A DNA stretch of 32,000 nucleotides, taken from the NCBI RefSeq assembly GCF_000619845.1, contig NZ_JHUX01000009.1:75019-107018 (forward strand), given 5' to 3'. A model generated the notes under the pieces. It did not search any database, was not told the DNA's origin, and saw only the letters and a program-made list of their open reading frames with translations. Position numbers and translations under genes: made by a program. Of this stretch, positions 16,883-31,419 are shown in pieces (position 1 is the first letter of the stretch; the number at the start of each line of letters is the position of its first letter). The stretch comes from Alkanindiges illinoisensis DSM 15370 (GTDB lineage: Bacteria > Pseudomonadota > Gammaproteobacteria > Pseudomonadales > Moraxellaceae).

Positions 16883-16953
16883 TTGTTCAATTAGTTGTTA
16901 TAGCCTGTCCTGAGTATTACTGCATTGCATGGTCATGATGCACCTATCTTAAG

Positions 16954-17747: not shown

Positions 17748-17794
17748 GTTTAAAACTTCTCCAACGTTCACCAGCCTTTTGCAATTGCTAAATA

Positions 17795-18475
17795 CATTGC
17801 CAGCCAGGGCTGGCTGCCAATCAGGCTGCGTGTGGTCTGGCACTCACCATTTTTGGGGTAGGCCTGTCGGCGTTCATCGGGCAAAGCTTTGTCAGTACCA
17901 GTTTGCCCGGTTTACAGCCGTTAAGCATTCCCGGCCTGTCTACAATTCCCTTTATTGGCCCGGTTCTATTTCACCAAAACTATGTGGTGTACCTGTCGAT
18001 GATTGTGCTGTTGCTGGTCTGGTGGGTATTGGCAAAAACCCGTTTGGGGCTACTGCTCAAGGCAGTGGGCGAGTCGCCAGAGTCAGCACATGCCATGGGC
18101 TACCGTGTACTAGCCATCCGCTATGGTGCGGTACTTTTTGGGGGGGCGATGGCCGGAATTGGCGGGGCATTTTTATCTACGGTCTATACGCCGCTCTGGG
18201 TAGAAAACATGGTGGCAGGTCGTGGCTGGATTGCCATTGCACTGGTGGTATTTGCAACATGGAAGCCGCTGCGCCTGATGCTCGGGGCTTATTTGTTTGG
18301 TGGAGTGACCATCCTGCAATTTCATGCGCAGGCATTGGGGGTTGAGGTGCCTGTCGAGTTACTGGCGGCACTGCCGTATCTGGCAACCATTATAGTGCTG
18401 GTGATGATTTCCCGTGACCATAAATTATTGCGGATGAATCTCCCGGCATCACTCGGCAAATCATTTTTGCCTTAA
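17795..18475 (+). pseudogene. Truncated ABC transporter permease (C-terminal part only)
   Basis: The frame is open from 17792. The translation ...NQAACGLALTIFGVGLSAFIG...LLKAVGESPESAHAMGY...GRGWIAIALVVFA... is typical of the C-terminal half of BMP/ribose-type permeases. There is no N-terminal half and no start context. It abuts the 5' end of the inverted ATPase fragment. Confidence 0.75.
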
Positions 18476-18791
18476 ACTGGCAAAAATCATTAGTTAAACC
18501 GCAAGCGTGCACACTACCTTATGGCATTGCAGCAAAATATTGGGTTGACTCGGCAGAGTTCATTTTGCCAAATTGATGAGTGAGCTGAATCCGTTGCATA
18601 GGCCAGAGGCATTTGAGCGTATCATCAGGTAGGGCAGCCCATTCAAACCAATAACGGCAAGTCAATACAAACTTGCCGCTTTGGTCAGTAAAAACCAGTA
18701 GTTTTCATTGAGGCGCTGTTTTCATTAAGACGTAGTTTGCCGCTGCGCTTGTATACACAGGATTAAAACTTCGGTGGAATTACTCCGGTGA

Positions 18792-18859
18792 CATGGGTTT
18801 AAACTGAGCATGGGTTTAAACTTAGCAACGATTTAAACTTAGTAACGATTTAAATTTAG
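18792..18859. repeat. 17-bp tandem repeat x4 (CATGGGTTTAAACTGAG, CATGGGTTTAAACTTAG, CAACGATTTAAACTTAG, TAACGATTTAAATTTAG)
   Basis: Read directly from the sequence. It is non-coding and lies 47 bp beyond the last gene of the cluster. Confidence 0.85.
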
Positions 18860-18905
18860 CAGCATATCAGCACAAATCTTAATGTTCCCAAGGATAGCAG
18901 ACGAG

Positions 18906-19352
18906 CTAGATGTTGCTTTTATTGTCTTTGCGGCCAACCGTAAACAGAAAACGGCCGATGCAAACCAGCTTGTCATCAAGCAGTAACTGAACGGATACTG
19001 TGGTAATGCGCCGGCCAGCACGAACAATGCTGGGTATGGCCTGCAAAGTTCCCTTAAACGCTGGCCGCAGGTAATCAAAGGTCATTGTCGAGCATAAGGG
19101 AAGCGTAGCATCGCCGCGCTGACGGGCCAGATAGGCTGCTGCAGCCACTTCACCAAAGCTTGCAAGAATGCCACCATGAAAGGTTCCAATCATGGGATTG
19201 CCGATATGCGAATCACGGAAATCCATAAAGTAGCGTGTTTCTCCATTTTGCAGTTCTTCGCGAAAACCCAGAAACTCGACAAACGGCTCGTCATACAGGC
19301 TCAGGGCCGCGGTGCCGGGTGTATCGGCGCTGTTGTGCTTTACAATACTCAT
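18906..19352 (-). CDS. PaaI/hotdog-fold thioesterase (second of a tandem pair)
   Basis: I place the start at the ATG at 19352 (MSIVKHNSADTPG...). The central GTFHGGILASFGEVAAAAY matches the PaaI/4HBT-type HGG motif. The 19475 start in the track over-extends into the upstream gene. Confidence 0.75.
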   Translation of the reverse strand: MSIVKHNSADTPGTAALSLYDEPFVEFLGFREELQNGETRYFMDFRDSHIGNPMIGTFHGGILASFGEVAAAAYLARQRGDATLPLCSTMTFDYLRPAFKGTLQAIPSIVRAGRRITTVSVQLLLDDKLVCIGRFLFTVGRKDNKSNI

Positions 19353-19353
19353 A

Positions 19354-19815
19354 TCAGTGGTCTCGCACTTCATTGTCAAAGGCAGGCCCCATTGTGCCAA
19401 TAGCAAAAGAGCCAGCCGCTGTTGCCAGCAGTTCGCCACTTTCTTCTGCAAACGCACGGCCGGTAATAAAGGCAACTGTATCTGTCCTGCCGATGCAATC
19501 CACTACAGCCTTTAAACCCATTGCCGCGGGAATGCTACGTAGAAAATCGACACGCAAATCAATGGTGGCAATTGGTTCCAAAGAGCGCAATGATGAAAAA
19601 ATAGACAAGCCGCACGTGGTATCAAGCAGTGTTACCAGGGCTCCCCGGTGCAGCGCACCCTTACGGTCCGCCAGTTGTTCAGAGAAGGGCATGCTCATTT
19701 CGGCATGACCATTGCTCACGGCGCCGACATTAATATTGAACATATTGAACAACGCATGATTCGTCCCAAAAAACGCTTTAGCCATCGTAAGATGTGTCGC
19801 GTTATTACCGTCCAT
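19354..19815 (-). CDS. PaaI/hotdog-fold thioesterase (first of a tandem pair)
   Basis: GALHRGALVTLLDTTCG motif, about 150 aa. The stop is 1 nt from the next ATG (TGAtATG). GGGAG RBS. Confidence 0.75.
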   Translation of the reverse strand: MDGNNATHLTMAKAFFGTNHALFNMFNINVGAVSNGHAEMSMPFSEQLADRKGALHRGALVTLLDTTCGLSIFSSLRSLEPIATIDLRVDFLRSIPAAMGLKAVVDCIGRTDTVAFITGRAFAEESGELLATAAGSFAIGTMGPAFDNEVRDH

Positions 19816-19870
19816 TGTTGACTCCCGCCATTTCTGACTAATTGAATTACAAAAAAATTAACGGCACGTT

Positions 19871-20839
19871 TCAGAGTGCAAGGGCGGCATCTACATAATT
19901 GCGCTCTGTCTGCATGACCGCAAAAATTGCCGCTTCAATGGCAGCATGCGGAAAGTCCGGGCTTTCAGAAGCCGATTTCAGGCACATGGCTAAAGCAGTC
20001 CATGTTTTTTCACAAGCCCGCATTAACAACGGCAACTGCTGCTGCTGTACACCGGCGTTATAGTGAATCGCCTCATCAAGGAACTCGGCATACATTTTCC
20101 GGAACCCGCCGCCACCTGTTCCACGCTTCTCGATGACCTGATAGGCAAAGCGGGTGGTCCAGTGCCAGTCACCTGTGCTGCCCCAGCGCCCAAGGTCATC
20201 TAGCCAGGTTTGCAGGGCCGATAGACCCCCTGTGGCTAATGAGCTGGCATTGTCACGGATGACCTGGGTGATTATCTCGGGCGTAATGTGCCCTTGAAAT
20301 GCGTTCGGGGTGAACATGTTGCCATGATGAATAAACGGCGGCTGCGTAGAAAATCGCGCGCGCGTGAGAGCCTGTTCGCTCACGGACAGCACATCAGGGC
20401 GCTCAGTGTCAGTAACCAGAATCTCGCCCGTCTCTGGGTTTTTCGACCAGGCCGCAATGGCGTGACCGGGAAAGTGAGTGGTGCTGTTAAAGTAAGGCAG
20501 GTAAAAAATATCTGTCAGCAGCAGGGTGGGGCGTCCCGCATCCAGGCAGTTGCCAAGCGCTACGGCTGCCAACTCGGGGGAATCGAAAGTTTGCCATTCA
20601 AAAGGTATGCCCAGGCTTTGAAATACGCGTGCTTCAAATCCCAGGGAACGCACATGCACTAAAAATGGCACAGGGGCATCCGCCGCTAGCTCCAGGTAAG
20701 TCACCCCAAGCCCTGAACCTAATCCAAGGCACATGGCCTCAGAAATAGTCAGCCCATTAAATTCAAGCAGGTCACGAATTGCAGAGCTGCCACAATGTCT
20801 CCCGATGGCATGGGTAATTTGAACATCCCGTTTCTTCAC
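19871..20839 (-). CDS. BtrH-like protein (BtrH N-terminal Cys-peptidase-fold domain plus DUF4872-type C-terminus)
   Basis: The N-terminal HAIGRHCGSSAIRDLLEFNG pattern (candidate nucleophile Cys) and overall length match the butirosin BtrH-like family, as far as I recall it. A GTG start overlaps the TetR stop (GTGA). Confidence 0.6.
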   Translation of the reverse strand: MKKRDVQITHAIGRHCGSSAIRDLLEFNGLTISEAMCLGLGSGLGVTYLELAADAPVPFLVHVRSLGFEARVFQSLGIPFEWQTFDSPELAAVALGNCLDAGRPTLLLTDIFYLPYFNSTTHFPGHAIAAWSKNPETGEILVTDTERPDVLSVSEQALTRARFSTQPPFIHHGNMFTPNAFQGHITPEIITQVIRDNASSLATGGLSALQTWLDDLGRWGSTGDWHWTTRFAYQVIEKRGTGGGGFRKMYAEFLDEAIHYNAGVQQQQLPLLMRACEKTWTALAMCLKSASESPDFPHAAIEAAIFAVMQTERNYVDAALAL

Positions 20840-21474
20840 AGGTTTTTTGCCTCGTCGTGAAAATCCATATTAAGTATGCCTCTTGTCATCATTTGCCATA
20901 TGGCATCAGCGATTTGTTCAAGATTGTACTTTCCATTGTCCTTATACCAGGTGGCCGCCCAATTGATGGCGCCTAGGCCAATAAGCCTTAACAGATCCAC
21001 ATCCACATCCTTACGGATAAAACCCTGAGTCTTCAGCTCATTTAGGATGGCGTGCCAATATTGTTCGTATCGGTCTCGTTCGGCGATCATCTGCTCACGT
21101 GCGGCACCATGGAGCGAGCGCCACTCAAACAAAAGCACATATACCATATCATCACCAGACATGAGTACATTAAGATGGGCGTGCAGTGCCGATTTCATTT
21201 TTTTTAGAGGATCCTGGATCATTGAGGTTGCTTCAATGATCCCGTGGATAGTTCTTTCAATGGCCAGCTGCATCATATCAACCAGAATATCATCCTTACT
21301 GCGATAGCGATAATGAAGGCTGCCGGGAAGAATGCCGCAAGCCCTTGCAATTTCTCGGACGCTTGCACGCTCAAAACCCTTTTCCCGGAACAGCCTGGCA
21401 GAGGCAGCGAGCACTCTTTCGCGGTCTGTAACCTCGACTCGAGCAGATTCTCGACTTAACACGGCTTCACTCAT
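20836..21474 (-). CDS. TetR/AcrR-family transcriptional regulator
   Basis: N-terminal HTH ILAASARLFREKGFERASVREIARACGILPGSLHYRY, about 210 aa. Confidence 0.9.
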   Translation of the reverse strand: MSEAVLSRESARVEVTDRERVLAASARLFREKGFERASVREIARACGILPGSLHYRYRSKDDILVDMMQLAIERTIHGIIEATSMIQDPLKKMKSALHAHLNVLMSGDDMVYVLLFEWRSLHGAAREQMIAERDRYEQYWHAILNELKTQGFIRKDVDVDLLRLIGLGAINWAATWYKDNGKYNLEQIADAIWQMMTRGILNMDFHDEAKNL

Positions 21475-21541
21475 ACTATGGTATCAGACCAATATAATAC
21501 TCGATTTAGTCGTGTAAAATCTTCCAGCACTTCTGCTTATT

Positions 21542-22411
21542 TTATGCTGCCGCCGCAATTGGAATGTTAAAAACAATTCGCGAAGCTTCCATGGGGTCCT
21601 GATGCTTGTCATATTCTGCCAGCCAGGCACTGACTTTTTCCGGGATACCTGTATCAGCAGGGTGGAAGCCCGGTTTAAACCAGTCCAGATAGCGTGGAAT
21701 AAGTCTGGTAATCAGGCCACGTGGCCCATACAGCCGATAAAACCCTTTGGCAAGCACTAAGGGCTGACCTTGCATTTTATCAACCTTTAGCATATGCCAA
21801 AGCACCGAGCCCACAACGGCATGCACTAGCACAGTGCCTACAATCAGGGCGGACGTGCGTATGAAATAGCCACCACCTGCTGCTTTTTCATACACATCAA
21901 AGGCCACCGCCTTGTGTTCGACTTCTTCTACACCGTGCCACATGTACATGGCGCGCATGGCGGGATGGGCGTTCTTGAACATCTCACCTTCATCGTCCAT
22001 AAAGCCTTCGCCCAGTGTGGCGGTAATGTGTTCAAAGGCAGCTGTCATGGCCAGCTGATACTTGGCAGGCAGGTGTTTCTGGAATACCTGAATAAAAAGC
22101 TTTAATCGGGATATGACTTTTTCGACATGAATGCCCTGCGCCTGCATCACAGCATTATACTGGTCATGCACGATACCGTGTTGGGCTTCCTGACGGAAAA
22201 AGTTTTTGATATCTGCTCTGAGCGTGGGATCGGTGACCTGATTTTCATAGTTGCGTACCGACTGAATAAAAAACCGCTCGCCATCGGGGAAGTGAATAGA
22301 AAGCGCGTCAAAGAAACGCGTCAAAACAGGATCGCCATCGTTCCAGAAAACGGGAACGTCACTTAAGGCAAACCGCGGCTTGCGCGGCTGAATAGTCATT
22401 AGATGCGTCAT
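21542..22411 (-). CDS. 'Predicted metal-dependent hydrolase'-family protein, paralog 1 (paired ExxH motifs)
   Basis: 289 aa with motifs HFPDGERFF, FRQEAQHG, AAFEHIT, GVEEVEHK and a hydrophobic C-terminal stretch. Highly similar to the 25311-26135 product. AGGAG RBS. Confidence 0.7.
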   Translation of the reverse strand: MTHLMTIQPRKPRFALSDVPVFWNDGDPVLTRFFDALSIHFPDGERFFIQSVRNYENQVTDPTLRADIKNFFRQEAQHGIVHDQYNAVMQAQGIHVEKVISRLKLFIQVFQKHLPAKYQLAMTAAFEHITATLGEGFMDDEGEMFKNAHPAMRAMYMWHGVEEVEHKAVAFDVYEKAAGGGYFIRTSALIVGTVLVHAVVGSVLWHMLKVDKMQGQPLVLAKGFYRLYGPRGLITRLIPRYLDWFKPGFHPADTGIPEKVSAWLAEYDKHQDPMEASRIVFNIPIAAAA

Positions 22412-22542
22412 GGTAAAGGTCTCCTTTAAAGCGATTAAACGGACGTAGACCTGCTATCAGCTTTGCCCTCAGGGGCGAGACAGGTCATGAGTTACCGTCT
22501 GAACCAAAGTCAGACTGACTGCTCGGTCAAGTTCAAATTAGC

Positions 22543-22571
22543 ACTATATTGGTCAATTGACCAAATGTCAA
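22543..22571 (-). promoter_or_regulatory. Consensus-like sigma70 promoter with an operator palindrome as spacer (promoter A)
   Basis: The minus strand reads TTGACA-TTTGGTCAATTGACCAA-TATAGT, i.e. -35, a 17-bp spacer and -10. The spacer contains the perfect 16-bp palindrome TTGGTCAATTGACCAA (22549-22564). Confidence 0.8.
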
Positions 22572-22649
22572 ACCCGCCTTCGTCAGCACTGCGTTATAAA
22601 TCTGTACAGGAACTCTGGCTGATGCAGAGTGCAGGCGATATGAGTTGTG

Positions 22650-23861
22650 TTAACGGCCGGTCAGTGCACCCAGAAGATTTTTTGCTTCGGAATGGCTCAT
22701 GTATTTCGGCACGGCATAGGTGCCATGCGCCTCGGCAAATGCAGCATTTGCCATGGCTTCAAAGTCGCTGCTGTTCATGCCGGGAATACGCGTATCAATG
22801 TTTAACTCAACAAGCAGTGCCTTGACATGGGCGATAAGGGCGTCAGTTGCTTTTGCATCACTAACGCTGGCCTCAGCGAGGCCAGTCTGCCGGGCCAAAG
22901 CTGCCAGGCGCTGGCGTGATGCCTTGCGGTTAAACTCAAGGATATGCGGCATCACAATTGCATTTGCGCGGCCATGGGGGATGCCATAGTAGGCGCCGAG
23001 CTGGTGTGCAATGGCATGAATATAGCCAAGACCTGCCTGATTTAGCGCCAGACCTGCATAATGGGAGGCCAGGGCCATGGCTTCGCGTGCATTCAGGTTG
23101 TTGCCATCACGCCAGGCCAGTGGCAGGTTTTCAAAAATCAGGCGAATTGCTGCACCCGCGTAATAGTCACTTTCTGGCGAAGCAAATTCACTGACCCAGG
23201 CCTCCAGTGCATGGGTTAAGGCATCAAGGCCGGTATCGGCCGTCACGGAACGTGGCATGCCCTGCATGATTTTTGGATCCAGCGCAGCAGCAAGCGGCAC
23301 CAGCTTCGGGTCAATGACCAATCCTTTCTGGTGGGACTGGTTGTCAGAAAGTACTGCGCCGATACTGACTTCCGATCCCGTTCCTGCGGTGGTGGGTATG
23401 ACAAACAAGGGTAGTGAGCGCTTGCTGCCCTTGAATATGCCAATCAGTTCTTGTGGGGTTTTTTTGTTGGTGGCTGCCAGGGCAATGACCTTGGCTGCAT
23501 CAATCGATGAGCCGCCACCGACGGCCAGCACACTGTCGCAATGAGACGACTGTAGTACTGACAGCCCGTCTTCAACCACACGAATGGTAGGGTCAGGGCT
23601 AACCCCGGAAAACACCGAGGTCTGGATACCATGCTGTTTGAGCGCCTTCTCCAGCGGCTGGATCAAACCCAAGTCATACAGGATTTGATCAGTAACAATC
23701 AGCACATGACTGACCCCGAGATGGGAGATGGTTGAGCACAGCCTGAGTGCCGAATCGGGGCCGACCAGGACAAGAGGACGCGGGACAGGCACAATGCGGA
23801 TAACCAGTTTAAGCGCAGCCAGCTGTGCTTTTGCCTTTAGGATAGTGGTCAGGATTGCCAT
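22650..23861 (-). CDS. Iron-containing (group III) alcohol dehydrogenase
   Basis: GGGSSIDAAK, TTAGTGSE and the His-rich metal site (HAIAHQLGAYYGIPHGRANA) are typical of the Fe-ADH family. Confidence 0.9.
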   Translation of the reverse strand: MAILTTILKAKAQLAALKLVIRIVPVPRPLVLVGPDSALRLCSTISHLGVSHVLIVTDQILYDLGLIQPLEKALKQHGIQTSVFSGVSPDPTIRVVEDGLSVLQSSHCDSVLAVGGGSSIDAAKVIALAATNKKTPQELIGIFKGSKRSLPLFVIPTTAGTGSEVSIGAVLSDNQSHQKGLVIDPKLVPLAAALDPKIMQGMPRSVTADTGLDALTHALEAWVSEFASPESDYYAGAAIRLIFENLPLAWRDGNNLNAREAMALASHYAGLALNQAGLGYIHAIAHQLGAYYGIPHGRANAIVMPHILEFNRKASRQRLAALARQTGLAEASVSDAKATDALIAHVKALLVELNIDTRIPGMNSSDFEAMANAAFAEAHGTYAVPKYMSHSEAKNLLGALTGR

Positions 23862-23966
23862 GAAATTTTCCAGTCAGTGGTTTACGTGTATTTAAGTGTT
23901 TGGATGAAAATGCCCCGAGTTGCTAATCAGCTCAAATCAGGGCTGTTGCTTTAGCAGAAGCACAAA

Positions 23967-25163
23967 CTACGCTGCTTCGTGATCCAGTTCTTGCACCATT
24001 TGCTCGCCACTCACTTCCGGCGCGGCCTGACCGGAAAAGTAAATGCCCAGGCCTGCTTTTTCATAGTGCGGGCGAATGCGGTCAGACAGCAGGCCAATTT
24101 CCCGGATATTTGGCACCAGCCGGGTAAACATGGTTTTGCGGAAACGCTGCATGCCTGGTGAGTTCATGATCAGTTGGCGCCATTGATCCCTGCTCACGCT
24201 GGTTCCGTCAAACCATTCTTCATAGACTTCATAAGCCATAAACCGGTTACGCATCAGAAGTGCCACTTCATAGGCCCAGTCTTCGCGCTCATTCCGTTCT
24301 GATTTGGAGATGCCGTAATTGATGTGTTCTTTGAGTGCCAGCACCCCGTAATGAACGTGCCGCGCTTCATCCTGAATCACGTATTTTAGCAATTCCTTGA
24401 GCAACGGTTCTTTGGTGCTTTGATACAAAAAGCCAAAGGCGCCCAGTGCCAATCCCTCAACCATGATCTGCATGCCAAGAAATTTCAGGTCCCAGCGCGA
24501 ATCTGTCATCAAGGCATCGATAATGACAAACAGGTTGTCGTTGATGTGATACATTTTGCCCAGTTTTTCAGTTAGATAGCGATGGAAAACCTCGACATGA
24601 CGGCCTTCATCCATAACCTGAGTGGAACCATAGAGCTTTCCATCAAAAAAGCTTACAGATTCGGTCACCTGTGCGGCAGCCAGCAAGGCGCCCTGCTCAC
24701 CATGCAGAAACTGGGACAGCATCCAGCTGGACATGGAGTGCACCATGCGTGGCTGGTCCTTGCTGTCCAGCCTGATGCCCAGTGCTGTGGCAGCATTCAG
24801 GTCAATAAGGTCCAGGGGAGCGATGGGCAGGTCGGGATTTAATGGATCCACCGGGGTATGCCAGGGTAAATCAGAACCATTCCACTGGCCGCGTTTGGCG
24901 CGCTCATAAAGCGCATGCATTTCAGGATGGTCATGCGGGTAGGCCCAGTTGAAATGTGCGGCATGGGCTGCCGGCATGTCGGTGGTATCACTACGCTTGC
25001 CCACACTAAAAAGCAGCCCACGCACGGCAGAGGGCGCTATGGCGCGCATGACACTAGGGCTTTTCATCGATGCAAAAATGTCGGCGGCTTCCATAAGGCC
25101 ATCGACACGGTTTTTGAGGTGGCCAGGTAAAATGTTTCGAATGCTATCAAGGGGAGTGTTCAT
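23967..25163 (-). CDS. Ferritin-like di-iron carboxylate oxygenase (AurF-like family), substrate unknown
   Basis: Two E...(D/E)ExRH motifs are present: HGEQGA...MDEGRHVE and MVEGLA...QDEARHVHYG. There is an N-terminal extension of about 130 aa. Confidence 0.7.
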   Translation of the reverse strand: MNTPLDSIRNILPGHLKNRVDGLMEAADIFASMKSPSVMRAIAPSAVRGLLFSVGKRSDTTDMPAAHAAHFNWAYPHDHPEMHALYERAKRGQWNGSDLPWHTPVDPLNPDLPIAPLDLIDLNAATALGIRLDSKDQPRMVHSMSSWMLSQFLHGEQGALLAAAQVTESVSFFDGKLYGSTQVMDEGRHVEVFHRYLTEKLGKMYHINDNLFVIIDALMTDSRWDLKFLGMQIMVEGLALGAFGFLYQSTKEPLLKELLKYVIQDEARHVHYGVLALKEHINYGISKSERNEREDWAYEVALLMRNRFMAYEVYEEWFDGTSVSRDQWRQLIMNSPGMQRFRKTMFTRLVPNIREIGLLSDRIRPHYEKAGLGIYFSGQAAPEVSGEQMVQELDHEAA

Positions 25164-25336
25164 GAGATGTCTCCGGTGGGGGTGATAGGGCTTGGGGGGT
25201 CAACTTCAAACGTAACGGCAGTCAAGGGCCGGCTGATGCACGCCAATGCGTAATGGGCCTTGCGTTCCTCCGGCATCAGACAATTCGGTTCATCCATGTC
25301 AACTTCGCCGTTAAGAATTTTCACGCGACAGCGCCC
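25160..25336 (-). pseudogene. Remnant of a plant-type [2Fe-2S] ferredoxin domain (last ~58 codons only)
   Basis: The minus-strand frame gives GRCRVKILNGEVDMDEPNCLMPEERKAHYALACISRPLTAVTFEVDPP...*. The last Cys of the C-x4-C-x2-C cluster is present and the fourth ligand Cys lies 30 residues later, but the first two Cys are missing. The stop overlaps the oxygenase start (ATGA). Confidence 0.7.
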
Positions 25337-26135
25337 ATTCAGCCAGCCAAGAATTAACCTTTTCTGGGATTTCGGTGTCGCTAGGATGGAAACCTGGCTT
25401 AAACCAGTCCAGATAGCGTGGAATAAGTCTGGTAATCAGGCCACGTGGTCCATAGAGGCGATAAAATCCCTTAGCAAGCACCAATGGCTGACCTTGTAGT
25501 TTGTCAATTTTCAACATATGCCAAAGAACTGAGCCAACCACCGCATGTACCAGTAGCGTTCCGATAATCAAAGCAGATGCGCGGGTGAAATACCCCCCAC
25601 CTGCCGCTGTTTCGTAAACATCAAAGGCTACTGTTTTGTGTTCGACTTCTTCTACCCCATGCCACATGAACATGGCACGCATTGCGGGATGAGCATTCTT
25701 GAACATCTCACCCTCACCCTCCATAGCACCCTCGCCTAGTACAGCAGTAATATGTTCAAAGGCAGCTGTCATGGCCAACAGATACTTGGCGGGCAGGTGT
25801 TTTTGGGAGAGCCGAATAAATAATTTGAATCTTGCGATGACCTTTTCGACATGAATGCCTTGCGACTGCATCACCGCATTATACTGGTCATGCACAATGC
25901 CATGTTGCGCTTCTTGGCGAAAAAAGTTTTTGATATCTTCTCTCAGTTTAGGATCTGTGACCAGATCCTGATAGTTACGCACCGACTGAATAAAAAAACG
26001 CTCTCCATCGGGGAAGTGAATAGAAAGTGCATCAAAGAAGCGTGTTAACACCGGGTCACCGTCGTTCCAAAAAACTGGAACATCACTTAAATCAAACCGC
26101 GGCTTACGTGGCTGGATATTGATCATATGAGTCAT
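25311..26135 (-). CDS. 'Predicted metal-dependent hydrolase'-family protein, paralog 2 (C-terminus replaced at a deletion junction)
   Basis: Start at MTHMINIQPRKPRF (ATG at 26135); the 26201 start in the track is an over-extension. By eye it is collinear and roughly nine-tenths identical to paralog 1 as far as ...WLAE. It then diverges (WALSRENS*) at about nt 25337. Confidence 0.7.
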   Translation of the reverse strand: MTHMINIQPRKPRFDLSDVPVFWNDGDPVLTRFFDALSIHFPDGERFFIQSVRNYQDLVTDPKLREDIKNFFRQEAQHGIVHDQYNAVMQSQGIHVEKVIARFKLFIRLSQKHLPAKYLLAMTAAFEHITAVLGEGAMEGEGEMFKNAHPAMRAMFMWHGVEEVEHKTVAFDVYETAAGGGYFTRASALIIGTLLVHAVVGSVLWHMLKIDKLQGQPLVLAKGFYRLYGPRGLITRLIPRYLDWFKPGFHPSDTEIPEKVNSWLAEWALSRENS

Positions 26136-26254
26136 GGCGAGAGTTTCCTTGTAAAGGCATCGAATGTCTGTAAACCTGCTATCACATTTGACCTTGAGCA
26201 ATATTTTTCACCTTGGTCAGGCACAGCAAATATCACACAAGAATTCAACGGGTA

Positions 26255-26270
26255 TTGGTCAAATGACCAA
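26255..26270. promoter_or_regulatory. Additional operator copy TTGGTCAAATGACCAA (operator B)
   Basis: Same 7-bp arms (TTGGTCA/TGACCAA) as the promoter palindromes. It lies just downstream of the predicted start site of promoter C. Confidence 0.65.
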
Positions 26271-26284
26271 ATGCATATTTTGAA

Positions 26285-26313
26285 TATATATTGGTCGATT
26301 GACCAAATGTCAA
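26285..26313 (-). promoter_or_regulatory. Consensus-like sigma70 promoter with an operator palindrome as spacer (promoter C)
   Basis: The minus strand reads TTGACA-TTTGGTCAATCGACCAA-TATATA. The geometry is the same as promoter A, with one arm mismatch in the palindrome. Confidence 0.8.
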
Positions 26314-26477
26314 GCCTGTCCTCAAAATTTGATAGAATGAGTTAACAACGCAGCAGGTGAGCCAGATCATCTTTGACATCGAATATAGCTACCAGACCTT
26401 TTGGCAGAGGTGTTTTTTTAATGTTAGTTTTTTTACATTAGAGTGTGTTGACGTTTGAAAATATTGATTGCAAATTG

Positions 26478-27022
26478 GAGGCAGACTCAGAGAATTAAAG
26501 CTCTCCCCATCCGAGTCCACCATGCCACGCTTTATGCTGAACGACCAACATTGAGCAAAGATTTCTCCTATGCTCAAGCAACAGGACATTGATCACAAAC
26601 CAAATTTACGGCTCACCGTAGAAGCCATGCTCTACAGAATGTGGGTGAAATGTCCATGGCTAGACCTACCTCCTGACTGAGTTTGGTCAGCAGCCTAATC
26701 TCTACAAAAGATACAACGACTGGTCAGCAAAAGGTTTTTTCCAAAGCATACTCAGGGTTTTATCTACTGACTCTGATATAGAGTAGGGGTTATGGATAGC
26801 AATTACGTCAAGGCACATCAACATAATGCACGTGCTGCAACTCACGATCAGGAGGCGATTGGCTTAAGTCGAGGTAGCAAGACAAGTAAGATCCATCTTG
26901 CCGTAGATGGGTATGGATTACCCATCGTGTTTGCGATCACGGGTGGTGAATTACACAAAGCCAAAGCTGCACCTGACTTGCTCTCACAGGTATCTATCGA
27001 TGCCATTCTGATTAACATCTGA
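26478..27022 (+). pseudogene. Degraded, 3'-truncated IS5-family (IS427/IS1031-like) transposase / IS remnant
   Basis: From the ATG at 26522 the translation is MPRFMLNDQH*AKISPMLKQQ...LRLTVEAMLYRMWVKCPWLDLPPD*. After frame breaks it continues MDSNYVKAHQHNARAA...AIGLSRGSKTSKIHLAVDGYGLPIVFAITGGELH. This is the conserved IS5-family order but carries stops and frameshifts and lacks the C-terminal third. The left-end coordinate is approximate. Confidence 0.7.
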
Positions 27023-27060
27023 ATCAGCGTAATGCAAATCTAGCCTGATGTAGTTTTAAG

Positions 27061-28275
27061 CTACCCCATCAACGCCTGTACCGCAATCGACTCATCCGCC
27101 AACCGCAGTGGATCGACCGCCGTACCAGCCGTGATCAGCTTTTTGCTTAGCATAAACTCCTGCGGACGATTCACACAATCCGCCGCAATCAGGCGACCCG
27201 CCTGCAAATAAAACGCTGCAAAGCTACGCCTTTGCTGCACATCACCCCGAATCACGATCTGATCATACCCCTGACTGAGTCCCGCAATCTGCAACTTTAG
27301 ATCATACTGATCTGACCAAAACCAAGGCAAACTCTTCGAGGTCCGCTGTAAGCCACACAAGGTCGCCGAGGCAATTTTGGCCTGTTCATTGGCGTTTGGT
27401 ACCGACTCCAAGCGCATCCGCCGCTGATAAATCGGATTAAACGCATTGGCACAATCCCCGATGGCCACAATCTCTGGCGCACTGGTACGGCAATACTCAT
27501 CAATCACAATACCATTGTCCACCTGCAAGCCCGCGTCCAGCGCCAACTCGATATTCGGTACAACCCCGACCCCGATGATCACCAGATCTGCATCGAACAT
27601 CGAACCATCGGCACACAGCACCGCTTGCGCCCGCCCCTCACCCGTGATCGCCGTGACCGACACACCGGTATGAATCGTCACACCCTGTTCGCGATGAATC
27701 CGCGTATAAAAGTCCGACACTTCCGGTGCAGTTACCCGCTGCAAAATCCGCTCGGCGGCTTCCAAGACCACCACCTGCATGCCCTGCTCGGTCAATGCGG
27801 CGGCTGTTTCAAGACCGATATAGCCACCACCGATCACCACTGCTTTGCCGTTGGGTTGTACAAATGGCTGGATAGCCTGTACATCGCTGATATTTCTAAG
27901 ATAATGCACACCTGCCAAATCAGACCCAGCCAGCGACACCGTCCTGACTCGTGCACCGGTACACAGCGCCAACTGGTCATACGCAAGCGTACTGCCATCT
28001 TGTAGTGTCACGCTGCGCGCTGCCCGATCAATCGCAACCACCCGCCCGTGCCGAAATTCGATCTGATTTTTTTGATAAAAAGCGGCTGGCCGAATCAATA
28101 ACTCATCGACCAGTTGTGCACCGCATAAAAAGGTCTTGGACAACGGCGGTCGATGATACGGCAAATACGGCTCATCGCCGATCACCACAATCTCGCCCTG
28201 CCAGCCATCTGGCCGCAGACTTGCCGCCAACTGCGCCGCAGCATGACTTGCGCCAATGATGACGATTGTTTGCAT
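27061..28275 (-). CDS. FAD-dependent ferredoxin reductase (putidaredoxin/rubredoxin-reductase type) of the CYP153 system
   Basis: GASHAA and GGGYIGLE dinucleotide folds are present, and the GDCA motif appears in AIGDCANAF. It is the last gene of the ferredoxin-P450-reductase operon. Confidence 0.9.
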   Translation of the reverse strand: MQTIVIIGASHAAAQLAASLRPDGWQGEIVVIGDEPYLPYHRPPLSKTFLCGAQLVDELLIRPAAFYQKNQIEFRHGRVVAIDRAARSVTLQDGSTLAYDQLALCTGARVRTVSLAGSDLAGVHYLRNISDVQAIQPFVQPNGKAVVIGGGYIGLETAAALTEQGMQVVVLEAAERILQRVTAPEVSDFYTRIHREQGVTIHTGVSVTAITGEGRAQAVLCADGSMFDADLVIIGVGVVPNIELALDAGLQVDNGIVIDEYCRTSAPEIVAIGDCANAFNPIYQRRMRLESVPNANEQAKIASATLCGLQRTSKSLPWFWSDQYDLKLQIAGLSQGYDQIVIRGDVQQRRSFAAFYLQAGRLIAADCVNRPQEFMLSKKLITAGTAVDPLRLADESIAVQALMG

Positions 28276-28361
28276 ATGAATTCACTCAGTTCATGGTTGA
28301 TGCACAGCATCAATTGTTGCCGACGACAGTTGCAAAATGCCTCTGTCGCCTATTTTGATAC

Positions 28362-29753
28362 CTACGCTTTGGCAGTCAGTTTGACCATCATCTTGGCATA
28401 GCCGCGCACAAAGTTAGACTGCACCAACTCTGGCTCACCCAATACCTCAATATTGTCGAAGCGAAGCAATAACTCCTCCCACAGAATCCGCAACTGCATC
28501 TCGGCCAAGCGATTGCCCATACAGCGATGCACACCAAAGCCAAATGACAAATGATTGCGTGCACCTTTACGATCAATCAAAAACGCATCTGGCTGTTCAA
28601 TCACCCGCTCGTCACGATTGCCCGAGGCATACCACATTAAGATCTTGTCGCCCTTACGGATGGTTTGGCCGTGCATCTCGATGTCTTGCTTGGCGATGCG
28701 ACGCATATACGCCAGTGGGGTCTGCCAGCGAATGATCTCGGACACCATATTTGGAATCAGGCTCGGTTGGTTTTTCAGTTTGACAAACTGCTCAGGAAAC
28801 AGGTTCAGCGCATATACCCCGCCGGTCATGGAGTTCCGCGTGGTGTCATTCCCACCGACAATCAGCAAGGCCAAATTGCCCAAAAACTCCATCGGACGGT
28901 GAATCAAATCCTTGGTATCGTCATTGCTCAGCATTAAGCTAATCAAATCAAATCCCATCGGCTCACCTGCCGCTTGCTGAGCCGCCTTGGCATGCCACAG
29001 CGCGGCAAACTGCTTGGCCATATCAGCGGCGGCATTAAAAAGCACATCGTTGTCGCTAATCTCACCGCCCGTGGCTTCTGCGCTGCCCGCCAACGTATCA
29101 GACCAGTACACCAGCTTGTGCCGCTGTTCATACGGAAAATCTAACAAGGTCGCCAGCATGCGTGCGGTGATTTCTTTGGACACCCGCTCCACCCAATCAA
29201 ACGGCGTATCGAGCGGCAAATCATCCAAAATCTCTTGTACCCGACTGCGGATCAGCCCTTCCATTTCTTTTAAATTTTTCGGTGCGACCACACCTTGTAC
29301 CGCTTGACGCTGCACATCGTGCTTAGGCGGATCCATTGCAATAAACATTTCCACATCCAGTCCGGCGGGCGGCTTGCCAATCACAATCACCGGTTCCGCC
29401 GAAAACAGCTCGTGGGATTTGTCCACGAACACAATATCGTCATAACGGGTAATCGACCAAAATGCACCGAATGGACTGCTTTTTTGGTAATGAACAGGAC
29501 GCTCGTCGCGTAGCCGCTTAAAGTATGACTGCCATTGATGCTGTCGATATAAAAACGGATTGCTCATATCGATGTCTTCGAGCTTGAGCGTGGCAACATC
29601 GGGGATTGGCTTTTCTACAAAATCAGGGAACGGTTGCGCCTGTGTCACCCGTTGCTTGACCTTTTGGAACACCTGCATGCCTTTCACTTGTAAATGCATG
29701 GGTATCGGCAGCAGGGCTGAAATTTGGTTTAGTGTGGCTTGCATGTTTTTCAT
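28362..29753 (-). CDS. Cytochrome P450, CYP153-type alkane terminal hydroxylase
   Basis: Heme loop FGFGVHRCMGNRLA, I-helix LLIVGGNDTTRNS, ExxR (SEIIRW). The length, the gene order with ferredoxin and reductase, and the divergent AraC match the described Acinetobacter CYP153 clusters (EB104/OC4 type), as far as I recall them. Confidence 0.9.
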   Translation of the reverse strand: MKNMQATLNQISALLPIPMHLQVKGMQVFQKVKQRVTQAQPFPDFVEKPIPDVATLKLEDIDMSNPFLYRQHQWQSYFKRLRDERPVHYQKSSPFGAFWSITRYDDIVFVDKSHELFSAEPVIVIGKPPAGLDVEMFIAMDPPKHDVQRQAVQGVVAPKNLKEMEGLIRSRVQEILDDLPLDTPFDWVERVSKEITARMLATLLDFPYEQRHKLVYWSDTLAGSAEATGGEISDNDVLFNAAADMAKQFAALWHAKAAQQAAGEPMGFDLISLMLSNDDTKDLIHRPMEFLGNLALLIVGGNDTTRNSMTGGVYALNLFPEQFVKLKNQPSLIPNMVSEIIRWQTPLAYMRRIAKQDIEMHGQTIRKGDKILMWYASGNRDERVIEQPDAFLIDRKGARNHLSFGFGVHRCMGNRLAEMQLRILWEELLLRFDNIEVLGEPELVQSNFVRGYAKMMVKLTAKA

Positions 29754-29802
29754 GATTCATTCCTCAATGATGATGCTTAACAGCTGTTGAAATCTGCCGT
29801 CA

Positions 29803-30123
29803 CTACATTTGAAACTCAGGCAAATGCACCACCATGCCATCCATTGCATCGGACAATTGAATCTGGCACGCCAAACGAGACGACGCCGTACCTTCTGGTA
29901 CCATCTCTAGCATGCGCGCCTCTTCGTCATTGGGCTGTCCTGTCGCCGCCAGCCAAGCACCGTCAACGATCACATGACAGGTTCCACAAGCACATTCGCC
30001 ACCGCAATCTCCATCAATGCCGGATACGCCGTGATCGATAGCCAGTTGCATCAGCGACTTGCCCGCTTCGATGTCAAGTACGGTGGCGGTACCGTCATAC
30101 TCGATCAATGTAATTTGACCCAT
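29803..30123 (-). CDS. [2Fe-2S] ferredoxin (putidaredoxin/adrenodoxin type), P450 redox partner
   Basis: I place the start at the ATG at 30123 (MGQITLIEYDG...), preceded by AGGAG. The Cys ligands lie in CGGECACGTCHV and LACQI. The 30348 start in the track is an over-extension. Confidence 0.9.
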   Translation of the reverse strand: MGQITLIEYDGTATVLDIEAGKSLMQLAIDHGVSGIDGDCGGECACGTCHVIVDGAWLAATGQPNDEEARMLEMVPEGTASSRLACQIQLSDAMDGMVVHLPEFQM

Positions 30124-30339
30124 TATTACTACTCCTGTGTGGTATACGGTTGCTGGTGACGCCGATGAAAATAGCCATCCCTCTTTACTCATAATAGACA
30201 TGTATCCATACTGCTTACAGGTCTCTTGTTGACAATATAGGGTCATTAAAAGACGATTATGGCGCTGTAGCCCCATCGTCGATTGCATTTTTCTAGTCGA
30301 TGTTCTTTCATACTGGTCTGTTATTGAGGTGTTTGAGCC

Positions 30340-31419
30340 ATGTTGCATCCAAGTCTGCTGACTGGTCTCGCCAGTACAAGTGAATCTGCTAATATCCCCT
30401 GTAGCTATACCCGTCTGATTGGCCGAGAGCTGGACTTGCAGGCGCGTGACCTACCTAAACTATTAAAATTCACCACGCTGACCGCTGAACAACTGATGCG
30501 TGACGACACGATGATCACGGCCAGCCAACAGATTCAAATCTTACAAAATAGCTTGGAGTTGTCCGCATCCGATCAGTTTGGCTTGCGTTTAGGGCAGCGG
30601 CTCACGCCGTCAACACATGGCTCGATGGGCTTTTTAATCAATAGCAGCCCGAACTTATTGGCCGTGTTACAAGCGTTTCAAACTTTTTTGCCGACCCGTA
30701 TGAGTTTGATTAGGCTCGAAACACACACCAATGCTGAGTGGACGACCTGCTTGATTTTCTTTGAGCAGACCTTGAGTCATGCAGTACATCGGCTACTGTC
30801 CGAAACTGTTGCGGTGATTTTTTCGGAATGTGCCGAATTTATTGTTGGACGACCGCTGACCGAGGCGGTGATTCAGTTTAGCCATCCCGCCCCCGATCAT
30901 CATGCCTGTTACGCGGATTATCTTGCCGGTACCTATCAGTTTGATCAGCCACAACTGTCGATCCGAGTGCCGACCGAGTTGTGCTTGATTGCCAATGCAT
31001 CCGCGCAGCACGATAGCTATCTGCTGGCGATGCAACAATGCGAAATGATCCTCAACCGGCTCAAGACCCAACAACACAGCACCACCTACCAAGTGCAAAA
31101 AGCCATGCTGTCCTATCCGCTCGGGCAACTGAGTGAAGAGGATCTGGCTGCAGCCTTGTTTATGAATAAGCGTACGCTGGCCAGACGTCTGGTCAAAGAG
31201 AACACGAGTTACCGGCTGATTCGAGATCGGATTTTATCTGAGAAAGCCAGTAGTTATTTACATGACCCTCAAATATCGGTCGAGGCAATTGCCAGCTTAC
31301 TGAATTACCACGACTCTGCTAATTTTCGGCGCGCGTTTAAACGCTGGTTTGGTGTATCACCAAGTGCTTATCGGCGAAAAATCACCCATCGGCAAGAAGA
31401 AAATGACCTGAGAGAATGA
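30340..31419 (+). CDS. AraC/XylS-family transcriptional regulator, divergent from the CYP153 operon
   Basis: C-terminal double HTH (KRTLARRLVKENTSYRLIRDRIL...IASLLNYHDSANFRRAFKRWFGVSPSAYRR). The exact start is uncertain. Confidence 0.85.
   Translation: MLHPSLLTGLASTSESANIPCSYTRLIGRELDLQARDLPKLLKFTTLTAEQLMRDDTMITASQQIQILQNSLELSASDQFGLRLGQRLTPSTHGSMGFLINSSPNLLAVLQAFQTFLPTRMSLIRLETHTNAEWTTCLIFFEQTLSHAVHRLLSETVAVIFSECAEFIVGRPLTEAVIQFSHPAPDHHACYADYLAGTYQFDQPQLSIRVPTELCLIANASAQHDSYLLAMQQCEMILNRLKTQQHSTTYQVQKAMLSYPLGQLSEEDLAAALFMNKRTLARRLVKENTSYRLIRDRILSEKASSYLHDPQISVEAIASLLNYHDSANFRRAFKRWFGVSPSAYRRKITHRQEENDLRE

Follow-up and report, generated by a model that had tools for sequence, protein, structure and literature searches.

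An uncharacterised, repressor-controlled set of iron- and thioester-handling enzymes of oil-degrading bacteria, present here as a recombinant copy

The window, by which we mean the whole 32,000-nt stretch analysed and in whose positions all coordinates are given, holds a gene cluster lying entirely on one strand, as the original prediction had it, namely the minus strand, with domains assigned by Pfam/NCBIfam profile searches. Beside it lies the predicted CYP153 alkane hydroxylase cassette, whose proteins are 100% identical to plasmid-borne proteins. The features are as follows.

18906..19352, minus: TE2, hotdog (4HBT/PaaI-type) thioesterase, 148 aa (Pfam 4HBT 47.8 bits, TIGR00369 47.9 bits)
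19354..19815, minus: TE1, second hotdog thioesterase, very divergent, 153 aa (Pfam 4HBT 28.6 bits, TIGR00369 42.7 bits)
19871..20839, minus: BtrH-like papain-fold protein (Pfam BtrH_N 124 bits, DUF4872 118 bits)
20836..21474, minus: TetR-family repressor with FadR/YsiA-like ligand domain (Pfam TetR_N, TetR_C_24, TetR_C_4)
21542..22411, minus: MH1, PF10118 Metal_hydrol, intact (Pfam 267.6 bits)
22543..22571, minus: promoter of the MH1-TetR-BtrH-TE-TE operon, TTGACA-17-TATAGT, with a TetR-type operator (22549-22564) in its spacer
22650..23861, minus: group III iron-containing alcohol dehydrogenase, Fe-ADH (Pfam Fe-ADH 156 bits, ADH_Fe_C 171 bits)
23967..25163, minus: DiFe, predicted ferritin-like di-iron oxygenase component, 398 aa (invariant metal ligands, weak fold relatives)
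25160..25349, minus: reductase remnant (FAD_binding_6 / NAD_binding_1 / Fer2), last 62 codons, translation CRVKILNGEVDM...GDIS*
25337..25349: recombination junction, seen as an identity switch, where the IS-flanked island gives way to the plasmid Tn3-type CYP153 cassette
25311..26138, minus: MH2, second PF10118 gene, plasmid type, 3'-truncated (Pfam 264.5 bits)
26255..26313, minus: promoter of MH2 with two operators (26255-26270, 26291-26306); TTGACA at 26313-26308, 17 nt, TATATA
27061..31419: adjoining CYP153 alkane hydroxylase cassette (Pfam), consisting of the next four genes
27061-28275, minus: FdR (Pfam)
28362-29753, minus: CYP153A (Pfam; 770 bits to PDB 8b2p)
29803-30123, minus: 2Fe-2S ferredoxin (Pfam)
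30340-31419, plus: AraC regulator (Pfam)

The cluster genes belong to two modules: module A, consisting of a PF10118 protein, TetR, the BtrH-like Cys-His-Asp protein and two hotdog thioesterases, and module B, consisting of an FNR/2Fe-2S reductase (Red), the 398-aa ferritin-like protein and Fe-ADH. Direct reading of the sequence confirmed all three tight couplings claimed earlier: the GTG start of the BtrH-like gene overlaps the TetR stop as GTGA, TE1 and TE2 are joined as TGAtATG, and the stop of the reductase remnant overlaps the DiFe start as ATGA. The count of eight intact genes did not stand, because MH2 has lost its 3' end at the recombination junction.

Consistent with a higher-GC imported block, GC content rises from ~0.40 to ~0.50 beyond 16 kb of the window, but the block proved to be two different mobile elements fused rather than one. 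Positions 14320-25349 are 99.84% identical to an intact IS-flanked island (L088) and positions 25337-32000 are 99.955% identical to pAba7804b, with the break falling in the imperfect microhomology CAGCCA(G/C)CCA; the same chimera is present in L089 and L090. The reductase remnant matches the 3' end of the 425-aa reductase gene of the intact island, and the fusion left 62 codons of this gene and took ~24 codons of MH2. These comparisons showed that a Tn3-type plasmid CYP153 cassette had recombined into the island, deleting the reductase and its promoter. The DiFe and ADH genes now lie downstream of the promoter of the truncated MH2, which is predicted to drive them as well. Both this deletion and the two-component nature of the oxygenase had been overlooked in the original prediction. 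Without its own reductase, the oxygenase in the window may be inactive; speculatively, it could work here only with a foreign electron donor, such as the adjoining CYP153 ferredoxin and reductase. Elsewhere, a separate in-frame recombination scar joins a GMC gene to a PF10118 gene (GMC::PF10118).

Palindromic operators overlap the promoter spacers before both PF10118 genes. The site at 22549-22564 (TTGGTCAATTGACCAA) lies within the TTGACA-17-TATAGT promoter (promoter score 11/12), and the MH2 promoter carries TTGGTCAAATGACCAA (26255-26270) and TTGGTCGATTGACCAA (26291-26306). The expectation of duplicated, operator-containing promoters was thus borne out, both by the duplication of 21613-22469 and 25337-26194 at 80.8% identity and by the palindrome TTGGTCRNNYGACCAA, found at three sites in the window (22549, 26255, 26291) against 0.02 expected. 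An operator common to both modules, TTGGTC-N4-GACCAA (that is, TTGGTCA-N2-TGACCAA), emerged, with three near-consensus sites also upstream of the reductase gene in the intact island. Other Moraxellaceae loci have the motif in front of Red, MH and an FMO-like gene, and in Myxococcota it precedes TetR-DiFe pairs, in which TetR homologues of 41-47% identity lie directly upstream of the di-iron gene and share the operator. Conservation of the predicted operators in different loci and phyla supports the proposed gating by TetR. The TetR gene is itself located within the second operon, and its product has a FadR/YsiA-like C-terminal domain (Pfam, NCBIfam) with Bacillus FadR as best NCBIfam match (75 bits, under the cut-off of 200). 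Binding of a long-chain acyl-CoA or fatty acid to this domain would release the repressor.

To evaluate conservation we used two sets of 80 loci, namely BtrH-anchored metagenome neighbourhoods and genome loci for DiFe/Red pairing. The cluster did not behave as one co-conserved unit; instead, two conserved modules occur mostly apart under a common operator. The BtrH/thioesterase/PF10118 core is accompanied by the di-iron oxygenase in 2 of the 80 BtrH loci, and the oxygenase mostly occurs without that core. Together with the chimeric window and the second scar, this separation would suit a cluster with no common function, in which recombining mobile elements simply brought unrelated cargo together. 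We consider this improbable, because both modules have the common operator in front of them, not only in the intact island but in other genera too, and the modules co-occur in at least four distinct gene orders: Red-DiFe-ADH-MH-TetR-BtrH-TE-TE (L088), MH-TetR-BtrH-TE-TE-TE-Red-DiFe-ADH (L003), a divergent arrangement (L007/L121) and Red-DiFe-hydrolase-MH-BtrH-TE-TE (L161). The MH-BtrH-TE-TE order is, moreover, kept across Moraxellaceae, Ketobacter and Alcanivorax.

The neighbours of these modules supported the earlier proposal of a long-chain aliphatic or acyl-thioester substrate, as did the FadR/YsiA-like domain of TetR. The module A core is found again, next to fatty-acyl catabolic genes, in Ketobacter, Alcanivorax and plasmids of Acinetobacter, and MH-BtrH-TE-TE is followed by FadD-ACAD-ACAD-GMC (FadD, acyl-CoA dehydrogenases and a GMC alcohol oxidase) in Ketobacter, Alcanivorax and 34-40 of the 80 metagenome loci. 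One locus (L008) reads CYP153-GMC-FdR-Red-DiFe-hydrolase-FadD-FMO-MH with an AlmA-like FMO; on the other hand, CYP153 lies within 8 kb in only 7 of the 80 BtrH loci.

Profile searches bore out the domains claimed for the BtrH-like protein and the thioesterase pair. In the former, C16 (GRHCGSSA), H122/H126 (THFPGHAI) and D144 are invariant, which marks a putative thioester-dependent transacylase or hydrolase, and the NCBIfam DarH equivalog was not reached (127 vs 300). All orthologues of TE2 retain an HGG motif and, where the catalytic carboxylate sits, a Glu, and TE1 conserves an H-R-G motif and the LLD Asp; the two share only 12-14% identity, and BtrH is followed by TE2 in 69/80 and by TE1 in 75/80 BtrH-anchored loci.

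The "metal-dependent hydrolase" MH1 is actually a di-metal carboxylate protein of ferritin-like type, with E45, E75xxH78, E127/H128, E163xxH166, H197 and H250 invariant in PF10118. Its AF2 model (pLDDT 92.9) gave weak ferritin-like fold matches, and a sequence search for PDB relatives found none. Up to the junction MH2 matches the pAba7804b protein at 100% identity, after which 7 foreign residues form a new end in place of the last ~24 codons, with loss of the near-invariant Y267, P273 and A276. Three ferritin-like proteins had been predicted, and ferritin-like they are, but they belong to two families (PF10118 and DiFe) whose sequence relationship is undetectable (hhalign probability 1.8%). 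The closest PF10118 homologues beyond Moraxellaceae are in Marinobacter, Ketobacter, Alcanivorax and Oleiphilus. In A. venetianus RAG-1 grown on dodecane, ORFs named "metal-dependent hydrolase", matched to ours by name only, were induced 143-fold and 28-fold (PMC5074533).

From its invariant residues (E156, E186xxH189, E236, E266xxH269), DiFe is predicted to be the oxygenase half of a two-component di-iron oxygenase. Red is the upstream partner in 26 of the 80 genome loci, and single-chain Red-DiFe fusions occur. The description "AurF-like" held at superfamily level only, as the AurF profile match (19.8 bits) fell under the Pfam cut-off of 29.6. Further fusions of ~1400 aa, in more than 30 clusters, join AMP-binding, PP-binding and thioester reductase domains (A-T-R) to a DiFe domain of 37-40% identity with all four metal motifs kept, a point in favour of the fatty-acyl substrate class. 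These genes adjoin sulfotransferase, and also FA_desaturase and PhyH, genes, and the sulfotransferases suggest that lipids are made or hydroxylated rather than broken down or deformylated. The family is also common without alkane genes nearby, for example in Acidimicrobiia (TetR-DiFe-dapA-rnj-ftsK), in Myxococcota with MerR and in Rhodoferax with AraC, so its core role may be endogenous lipid metabolism.

Considering these contexts, the modules might build or tailor a surfactant, signalling or membrane lipid (e.g. N-acyl or hydroxylated/sulfated) rather than degrade hydrocarbons, with the BtrH-like enzyme forming an amide or ester from an acyl thioester and the di-iron enzymes hydroxylating or desaturating the chain. 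The A-T-R fusions beside lipid-modifying neighbours, the occurrence of ABC1/UbiB-DiFe fusions and the spread of the DiFe family among organisms that do not degrade alkanes speak for this, as do the biosynthetic acyltransferases represented by the characterised BtrH_N members, the thioester-dependent transacylases BtrH and CtaG, and by the NCBIfam DarH model (PMC7183216). We nevertheless regard it as rather unlikely, given that carrier protein, NRPS/PKS, amine-supplying and exporter genes do not recur in the 80 BtrH-anchored neighbourhoods, that FadD, acyl-CoA dehydrogenases and GMC alcohol oxidase do, and that the Acinetobacter core moves with CYP153 on transposons.

A salvage role, likened to that of PaaI/PaaY in phenylacetate catabolism, would have the cluster dispose of fatty aldehydes that are toxic and recover CoA from acyl-CoAs left as dead ends by alkane oxidation, with no productive step. 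It would account for the two or three PaaI-type thioesterases accompanying the cluster, for a reductase whose domain architecture is that of PaaE, and for an island that encodes Fe-ADH together with a di-iron enzyme of ADO-like, aldehyde-directed type but in which no aldehyde dehydrogenase was found. The evidence identifies no toxic intermediate, however, and in marine alkane degraders the core heads the FadD-ACAD-ACAD-GMC operon, a placement that looks like a main-line function; we judge such a role quite unlikely.

We give about an even chance to the reading that the locus is an acyl-CoA- or fatty-acid-induced, TetR-repressed accessory unit of long-chain alkane/fatty-acyl oxidation, the chemistry of which we infer. 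The FAD/2Fe-2S reductase would relay electrons from NAD(P)H to the di-iron centre of the 398-aa DiFe, where O2 would be activated for ADO-like C1 cleavage or hydroxylation of a long-chain aliphatic molecule. The likeliest substrate is a fatty aldehyde or alcohol that DiFe and the adjacent Fe-ADH would pass between them. The Fe-ADH gene lies 3' of the di-iron gene in L003-L006, L088, L091, L092 and L093, and the fusion evidence fits an ADH-then-oxygenase order as well as the one originally proposed, in which the oxygenase would act first, then ADH, then thioester processing. In module A, the Cys16-His126-Asp144 enzyme would accept the acyl moiety of a thioester (CoA), the chain would be modified oxidatively by the PF10118 di-metal protein, and the two thioesterases would release product and free CoA. 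The unit is carried on mobile elements in Acinetobacter as two conserved modules with one operator type. It is a real, repressor-controlled enzyme set of oil-degrading bacteria.

As predicted, the enzyme set falls outside any described pathway: NCBIfam searches of the cluster proteins, Fe-ADH included, gave no equivalog-level match, no description of the cluster or its protein families was found in the literature, and no member with demonstrated activity was found for PF10118, the DiFe family or this BtrH subfamily. Among known systems, the nearest solved relatives of DiFe (AF2 model, pLDDT 80.7) are aldehyde-deformylating oxygenase (ADO) and R2lox, both weak by fold (E > 1e-3, TM 0.4 normalised to query) and by sequence. 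Both are lipid-binding, and there is precedent for R2lox as an alkane monooxygenase (PMC10867098) and for an ADO-like di-iron enzyme, BioE, that cleaves acyl-CoA/ACP (PMC12704756).

Profile searches upheld each gene assignment of the original prediction, with the listed genes all present on the minus strand as follows.

Principal features of the cluster
18906-26201, minus strand, full extent of the listed cluster genes
21542-22411, minus strand, MH1, a ferritin-like protein of the PF10118 ('Metal_hydrol') family
23967-25163, minus strand, DiFe, a 398-aa ferritin-like di-iron protein
25311-26138, minus strand, MH2, a second PF10118 protein

The two thioesterases (TE1 and TE2) were of the 4HBT/TIGR00369 hotdog type (Pfam, NCBIfam), the TetR regulator carried TetR_C_24 and TetR_C_4 (YsiA-like) C-terminal domains (Pfam), and a group III Fe-dependent alcohol dehydrogenase (ADH) was also encoded (profile search). 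The claimed gene junctions GTGA, TGAtATG and ATGA could be read directly in the sequence. The adjacent P450 was CYP153A as predicted (770 bits against PDB 8b2p, 761 against 5fyf), and this similarity together with its Fer2, Pyr_redox_2 and AraC neighbours (Pfam) placed it among the CYP153 alkane hydroxylases. For the CYP153 ferredoxin, a mechanical ORF at 29803-30348 (181 aa) runs into the divergent AraC start; since related records call a 106-aa protein (window 29803-30123), the longer ORF is an upstream-start artefact.

Literature searches gave no account of the cluster, of PF10118 or of the BtrH subfamily, in agreement with the claim that the pathway had not been described. Searches on PF10118, on COG3687/DUF4872/PF14399, on almA and Alcanivorax hydrolases and on Acinetobacter CYP153 plasmids returned no account of the cluster, and every match to a search pairing BtrH with CYP153 was the strain name BTRH79. 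In A. venetianus RAG-1 grown on dodecane, 'metal-dependent hydrolase' ORFs, possibly of the PF10118 family, were up 143-fold and 28-fold (PMC5074533). We conclude that the cluster is real and uncharacterised.

The cluster had been placed on one imported block; instead, two mobile elements recombined to produce it, and the reductase has been lost in the window. Window 14320-25349 matched the metagenome contigs L088 and L091-L093 at 99.84% identity, and 25337-32000 matched the A. baumannii plasmid pAba7804b at 99.955%.

Gene orders of the two parental elements
Intact IS-flanked island (L088, L091-L093): reductase, di-iron protein, Fe-ADH, PF10118, TetR, BtrH-like, TE, TE
Cargo of pAba7804b on a Tn3-like ISAcsp1 element: AraC, ferredoxin (Fdx), CYP153, ferredoxin reductase (FdR), IS5 fragment, PF10118, TetR, BtrH, TE, TE

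An imperfect microhomology, CAGCCA(G/C)CCA, marks the point where the two elements join (25337-25349). This fusion cost the island reductase (425 aa, with FAD_binding_6, NAD_binding_1 and Fer2 domains) its promoter and left its 62 last codons, which are the 'ferredoxin remnant' of the original prediction; it also cut about 24 last codons from the plasmid-type PF10118 gene, behind whose promoter DiFe and ADH now sit in the window. L089 and L090, assembled independently of each other, contain the same chimera; this recurrence rules out an assembly artefact and indicates a circulating variant. No ADH/DiFe segment was found in the plasmid database, distant mode included. The window, in effect a natural experiment, is a record of reductase loss when two mobile alkane-degradation cassettes recombined.

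Several further features surround the recombinant. An IS transposase (HTH_28/rve_3) at 14379-15752 edges the island, and in L088 same-orientation IS copies (5336-6673 and 19425-20762) enclose the whole cluster and a DUF4331 gene, so that the intact form resembles a putative composite transposon. Between IS and cluster (15887-18475) lie an intact adenosine deaminase gene and fragments of an ABC ATPase (17130-17843) and a BPD_transp_2 permease (17903-18475), which look like hitch-hiking leftovers of a transporter operon. Downstream of TE2, at a distance of about 45 nt from its stop codon (18906), lies a tandem array in which a 17-bp unit is repeated about 4-5 times (18792-18861; units TTTAAACTTAGCAACGA and CATGGGTTTAAACTGAG); the array falls inside the 99.8%-identical L088 match, but the plasmid homology stops at 18913, immediately short of it. 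Between the MH2 promoter and the FdR gene, a 76-aa ORF (26792-27022) had no Pfam match, and plasmid records label the equivalent ORF an IS5-family transposase fragment (window 99.955% identical there). Further off, window 1687-13603 is a copper-resistance block encoding a CusS/CusR two-component system, a CopA-like multicopper oxidase, CopB and CusC/CusB/CusA efflux, in which CusB bears a CusF domain and the copA-like gene holds a 105-bp direct repeat (5345-5449 and 5465-5569, 91% identical). Elsewhere, protein P0216 (L161 5017-6078) joins a GMC oxidoreductase N-terminus in frame to a PF10118 protein lacking its first ~60 residues; this second, independent scar suggests that recombination within alkane islands has hot spots at PF10118 genes.

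The expectation of one co-occurring gene set also gave way, since 80 BtrH-anchored and 80 DiFe-anchored loci resolved two separable modules: module A (PF10118, TetR, BtrH-like protein, TE1, TE2) and module B (reductase, DiFe, ADH). Neighbours of the BtrH-like gene were counted in 80 metagenome loci.

Neighbours of the BtrH-like gene in 80 loci
TE1, 75/80
TE2, 69/80
PF10118 directly upstream, 59/80
GMC oxidase, 40/80
FadD, 39/80
Acyl-CoA dehydrogenases, 34-36/80
TetR, 20/80
CYP153, 7/80
Di-iron protein with reductase, 2/80

In Ketobacter alkanivorans and Alcanivorax the operon reads PF10118-BtrH-TE-TE-FadD-ACAD-ACAD-GMC. FMO-like (AlmA/BVMO-like) and SDR genes accompany a second PF10118 paralogue, which lies near this operon in Ketobacter and Alcanivorax and is also found in a Moraxellaceae MAG (L094 1-4344, L097 18405-20870, L008 14339-16929); in Ketobacter an esterase gene is added. 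The DiFe-anchored search reached at least 596 species genomes, chiefly of Myxococcota, Gammaproteobacteria and Acidimicrobiia. Among the 80 loci kept, the reductase adjoined DiFe in 26, and the remaining cluster genes stood beside DiFe in Moraxellaceae only, where modules A and B were linked in at least four different orders. In one Moraxellaceae MAG (L008), the reductase-DiFe pair came directly after a CYP153 operon and ahead of genes for a hydrolase, FadD, an FMO-like protein and PF10118. Because high-GC genomes yield antisense ORFs, the clustering of ORFs around DiFe was noisy, and only Pfam-confirmed clusters were used.

The two modules share an operator. The PF10118 genes with 58 nt upstream form a repeat of 80.8% identity, and the palindrome TTGGTCRNNYGACCAA occurs three times in the window, in each case upstream of a PF10118 gene (0.02 copies expected), with one copy in the spacer of a TTGACA-17-TATAGT promoter. 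All Moraxellaceae loci have this motif upstream of PF10118. It also precedes the reductase in L007, in L008 and in the intact island, the last with three near-consensus sites at 31-bp spacing, and the FMO-like gene in L008. Myxococcota TetR-DiFe pairs, whose TetR is 41-47% identical to that of the window, are likewise preceded by it. The shared operator, a sequence feature, is the strongest evidence for a functional tie between the modules, and its presence at both modules and at TetR-DiFe pairs suggests a TetR ligand related to what the di-iron enzyme uses as substrate or makes as product. Against the acyl-CoA-sensing equivalog FadR/YsiA of Bacillus, the window TetR scored 75.3 bits, below the cut-off of 200. 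Context favoured the general idea of the original prediction, in which a ligand would induce enzymes that tailor long-chain aliphatic or acyl-thioester substrates.

We then considered what kind of enzyme DiFe may be. Residues E156, E186xxH189, E236 and E266xxH269 were invariant in 17 sequences, the model was helical (pLDDT 80.7), and its top-ranked informative fold matches were ferritin-like oxygenases without exception. Judged by these motifs and the predicted fold, DiFe belongs to the ferritin-like di-metal carboxylate superfamily, the only assignment that holds. By model and profile, cyanobacterial aldehyde-deformylating oxygenase (ADO) came first, followed by R2lox, PaaA/C and RNR-R2, all weakly; for ADO the values were phmmer 5e-5, profile 2.2e-4, Foldseek 5e-3 and TM 0.63-0.70 by target length, and a Pfam ADO match was absent. 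The label 'AurF-like' could not be kept: the window DiFe reached 19.8 bits against a PF11583 gathering threshold of 29.6. More distant fused homologues exceed that threshold (48-70 bits), which places kinship with AurF at the family edge or at superfamily level. R2lox was rejected at 32.6 bits over a 34-residue stretch (NCBIfam equivalog cut-off 194), and PaaA/PaaC of PaaABCDE for lack of a PaaA_PaaC Pfam match, these being weak fold matches only; no PaaB or PaaD homologue was detected in the window (Pfam, NCBIfam).

A two-component oxygenase pairs with a cognate FAD_binding_6/NAD_binding_1/Fer2 reductase. This partner is missing from the window, is encoded in the intact island (L088, L091-L093), and is supported by fusion proteins. 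DiFe is 62-65% identical to Myxococcota homologues, and 1.84 billion representatives, searched exhaustively, contained 1864 matches at E <= 1e-3, 1062 at E <= 1e-10 and 299 at E <= 1e-30. The family includes reductase-DiFe and ABC1/UbiB-DiFe fusions and more than 30 clusters of ~1400-aa proteins combining AMP-binding, PP-binding, thioester-reductase and DiFe domains. From these architectures we infer that the family works with an FNR/2Fe-2S reductase on substrates derived from long acyl chains (aldehyde, alcohol or tethered acyl). In Myxococcota, a Sulfotransfer_3 gene directly follows the ~1400-aa fusion gene (L182 4054-9427; L183 7001-12324), and one such locus also has FA_desaturase and PhyH genes; these loci look like an uncharacterised sulfated-lipid pathway.

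The PF10118 proteins scored 267.6 bits (MH1) and 264.5 bits (MH2) against a Pfam gathering threshold of 33.2 and carry the di-metal carboxylate signature E45, E75xxH78, E127 and E163xxH166. The predicted model (pLDDT 92.9) resembles, distantly, only ferritin-like oxygenases (RNR-R2, CmlI, AurF, R2lox) and appears unlike any hydrolase fold despite the name 'Metal_hydrol'; sequence and profile searches of the PDB found no relative. DiFe and PF10118 as paralogues were rejected, with an hhalign probability of 1.8% and undetectable sequence kinship. The BtrH-like protein matched BtrH_N and DUF4872 at 124 and 118 bits (Pfam), with C16, H126 and D144, a triad assigned by position, invariant in six sequences of 51-83% identity; as the DarH acyltransferase (NF053550) it failed, at 127 bits against an equivalog cut-off of 300. 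The thioesterases scored 47.8 and 28.6 bits for 4HBT (cut-off 20.6) and 47.9 and 42.7 bits for TIGR00369 (36.6), and both keep a catalytic D or E and an HGG or HRG motif, as hotdog members do; they are not the PaaI equivalog (29.8 against 118.9). TE1 and TE2 are ancient paralogues of 12-14% identity, and complementary half active sites were rejected because each retains the carboxylate and the H-x-G motif.

Beside the observed gene content and its conservation, the operator placement, the reductase partnership and the deletion in the window, we propose a route in which a long-chain acyl-CoA or fatty acid would lift TetR repression, DiFe would activate O2 on a substrate (long-chain aldehyde, alcohol or acyl) traded with the Fe-ADH, the BtrH-like cysteine would capture the thioester, PF10118 would tailor the chain oxidatively, and the thioesterases would free the product by hydrolysis. 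The window DiFe, having no reductase, would require a surrogate donor for activity. The island encodes no aldehyde dehydrogenase, so that aldehyde may be converted to acid, or to a shortened chain, in an unconventional way.

Tentatively, and as a reading we hold rather unlikely, the modules would be two new systems, namely the founder of a reductase-DiFe oxygenase family and a PF10118-BtrH-TE-TE module for thioester-templated oxidation. The reductase and DiFe may be the bacterial founder of a large family, whose members would be ADO-like di-iron oxygenases coupled to a reductase, with long-chain aldehydes or acyl chains as substrates; in alkane degraders the step could be one-carbon shortening (alpha-oxidation-like) or hydroxylation. 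In module A, the BtrH-like cysteine may hold an acyl group while PF10118 oxidises it, and a hetero-pair of hotdog thioesterases would then release it; if true, this module could provide a step still missing from the long-chain or subterminal catabolism of alkanes by Alcanivorax, Ketobacter and Acinetobacter. To our knowledge, the genes for the subterminal hydroxylase and for handling very long or branched chains in alkane catabolism are unassigned, and we found no assigned reaction in the literature for PF10118 or the 398-aa di-iron family. These families are conserved in the best-known oil degraders and carried on Acinetobacter plasmids, including those of clinical A. baumannii. The fusions with an acyl-AMP ligase, a carrier and a thioester reductase (A-T-R), the reductase dedicated to DiFe and the conservation of the TetR operator yield concrete biochemical hypotheses, and the enzymes could be of use in biocatalysis, for instance for alkane or alkanol production or terminal functionalisation.

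The known systems that come nearest are ADO with Fd/FNR and acyl-ACP reductase (AAR), R2lox, PaaABCDE with PaaI, BioE, and BtrH and CtaG. Like cyanobacterial ADO, its best fold and sequence match, DiFe has a ferritin-like E/ExxH/E/ExxH di-iron site and, by analogy, would depend on an outside Fd/FNR-type electron supply; the ADO aldehyde comes from a thioester reductase, which is mirrored by the A-T-R-DiFe fusions and the adjacent ADH. Unlike ADO, from which it differs at ~15% identity and fold E > 1e-3, DiFe is 398 aa long with a conserved ~130-aa N-terminal extension and a C-terminal extension, and its family has a dedicated fused FNR-2Fe2S reductase and occurs in heterotrophs. The ferritin-like R2lox binds a long-chain fatty-acid ligand, and its matches to DiFe are weak (NCBIfam local E 4.8e-8; PDB 4hr0 E 0.016). 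It has been claimed as an alkane monooxygenase performing alkane hydroxylation (PMC10867098). Unlike DiFe, R2lox has no dedicated reductase gene.

The Paa system is a multicomponent di-iron oxygenase acting on a CoA thioester, with a FAD_binding_6/NAD_binding_1/Fer2 reductase as in the island. The present cluster likewise includes PaaI-type hotdog thioesterases and, by analogy, a putative thioester-sensing repressor; its context, unlike that of Paa, is aliphatic rather than aromatic. AlmA-type flavin monooxygenases (BVMO) have a role in long-chain alkane degraders, and in AlmA-type clusters PF10118 paralogues adjoin FMO-like, SDR and esterase genes, while the window has no FMO-like gene. BioE, an ADO-like ferritin-like di-iron oxygenase that cleaves long-chain acyl-CoA/ACP, shows that such acyl-thioester chemistry exists among ferritin-like enzymes (PMC12704756). 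As is predicted for DiFe, BioE is paired with a ligand-dependent repressor; unlike DiFe, it lies beside biotin genes, absent here, with a MocR-type regulator. BtrH (butirosin) and CtaG (closthioamide) are thioester-dependent transacylases with acyl thioester substrates (PMC7183216), and the BtrH-like protein shares their BtrH_N papain-like fold and invariant Cys-His-Asp positions. Unlike BtrH and CtaG, the BtrH-like gene has no carrier protein or amine acceptor pathway near it, and it is always followed by two hotdog thioesterases and mostly preceded by PF10118.
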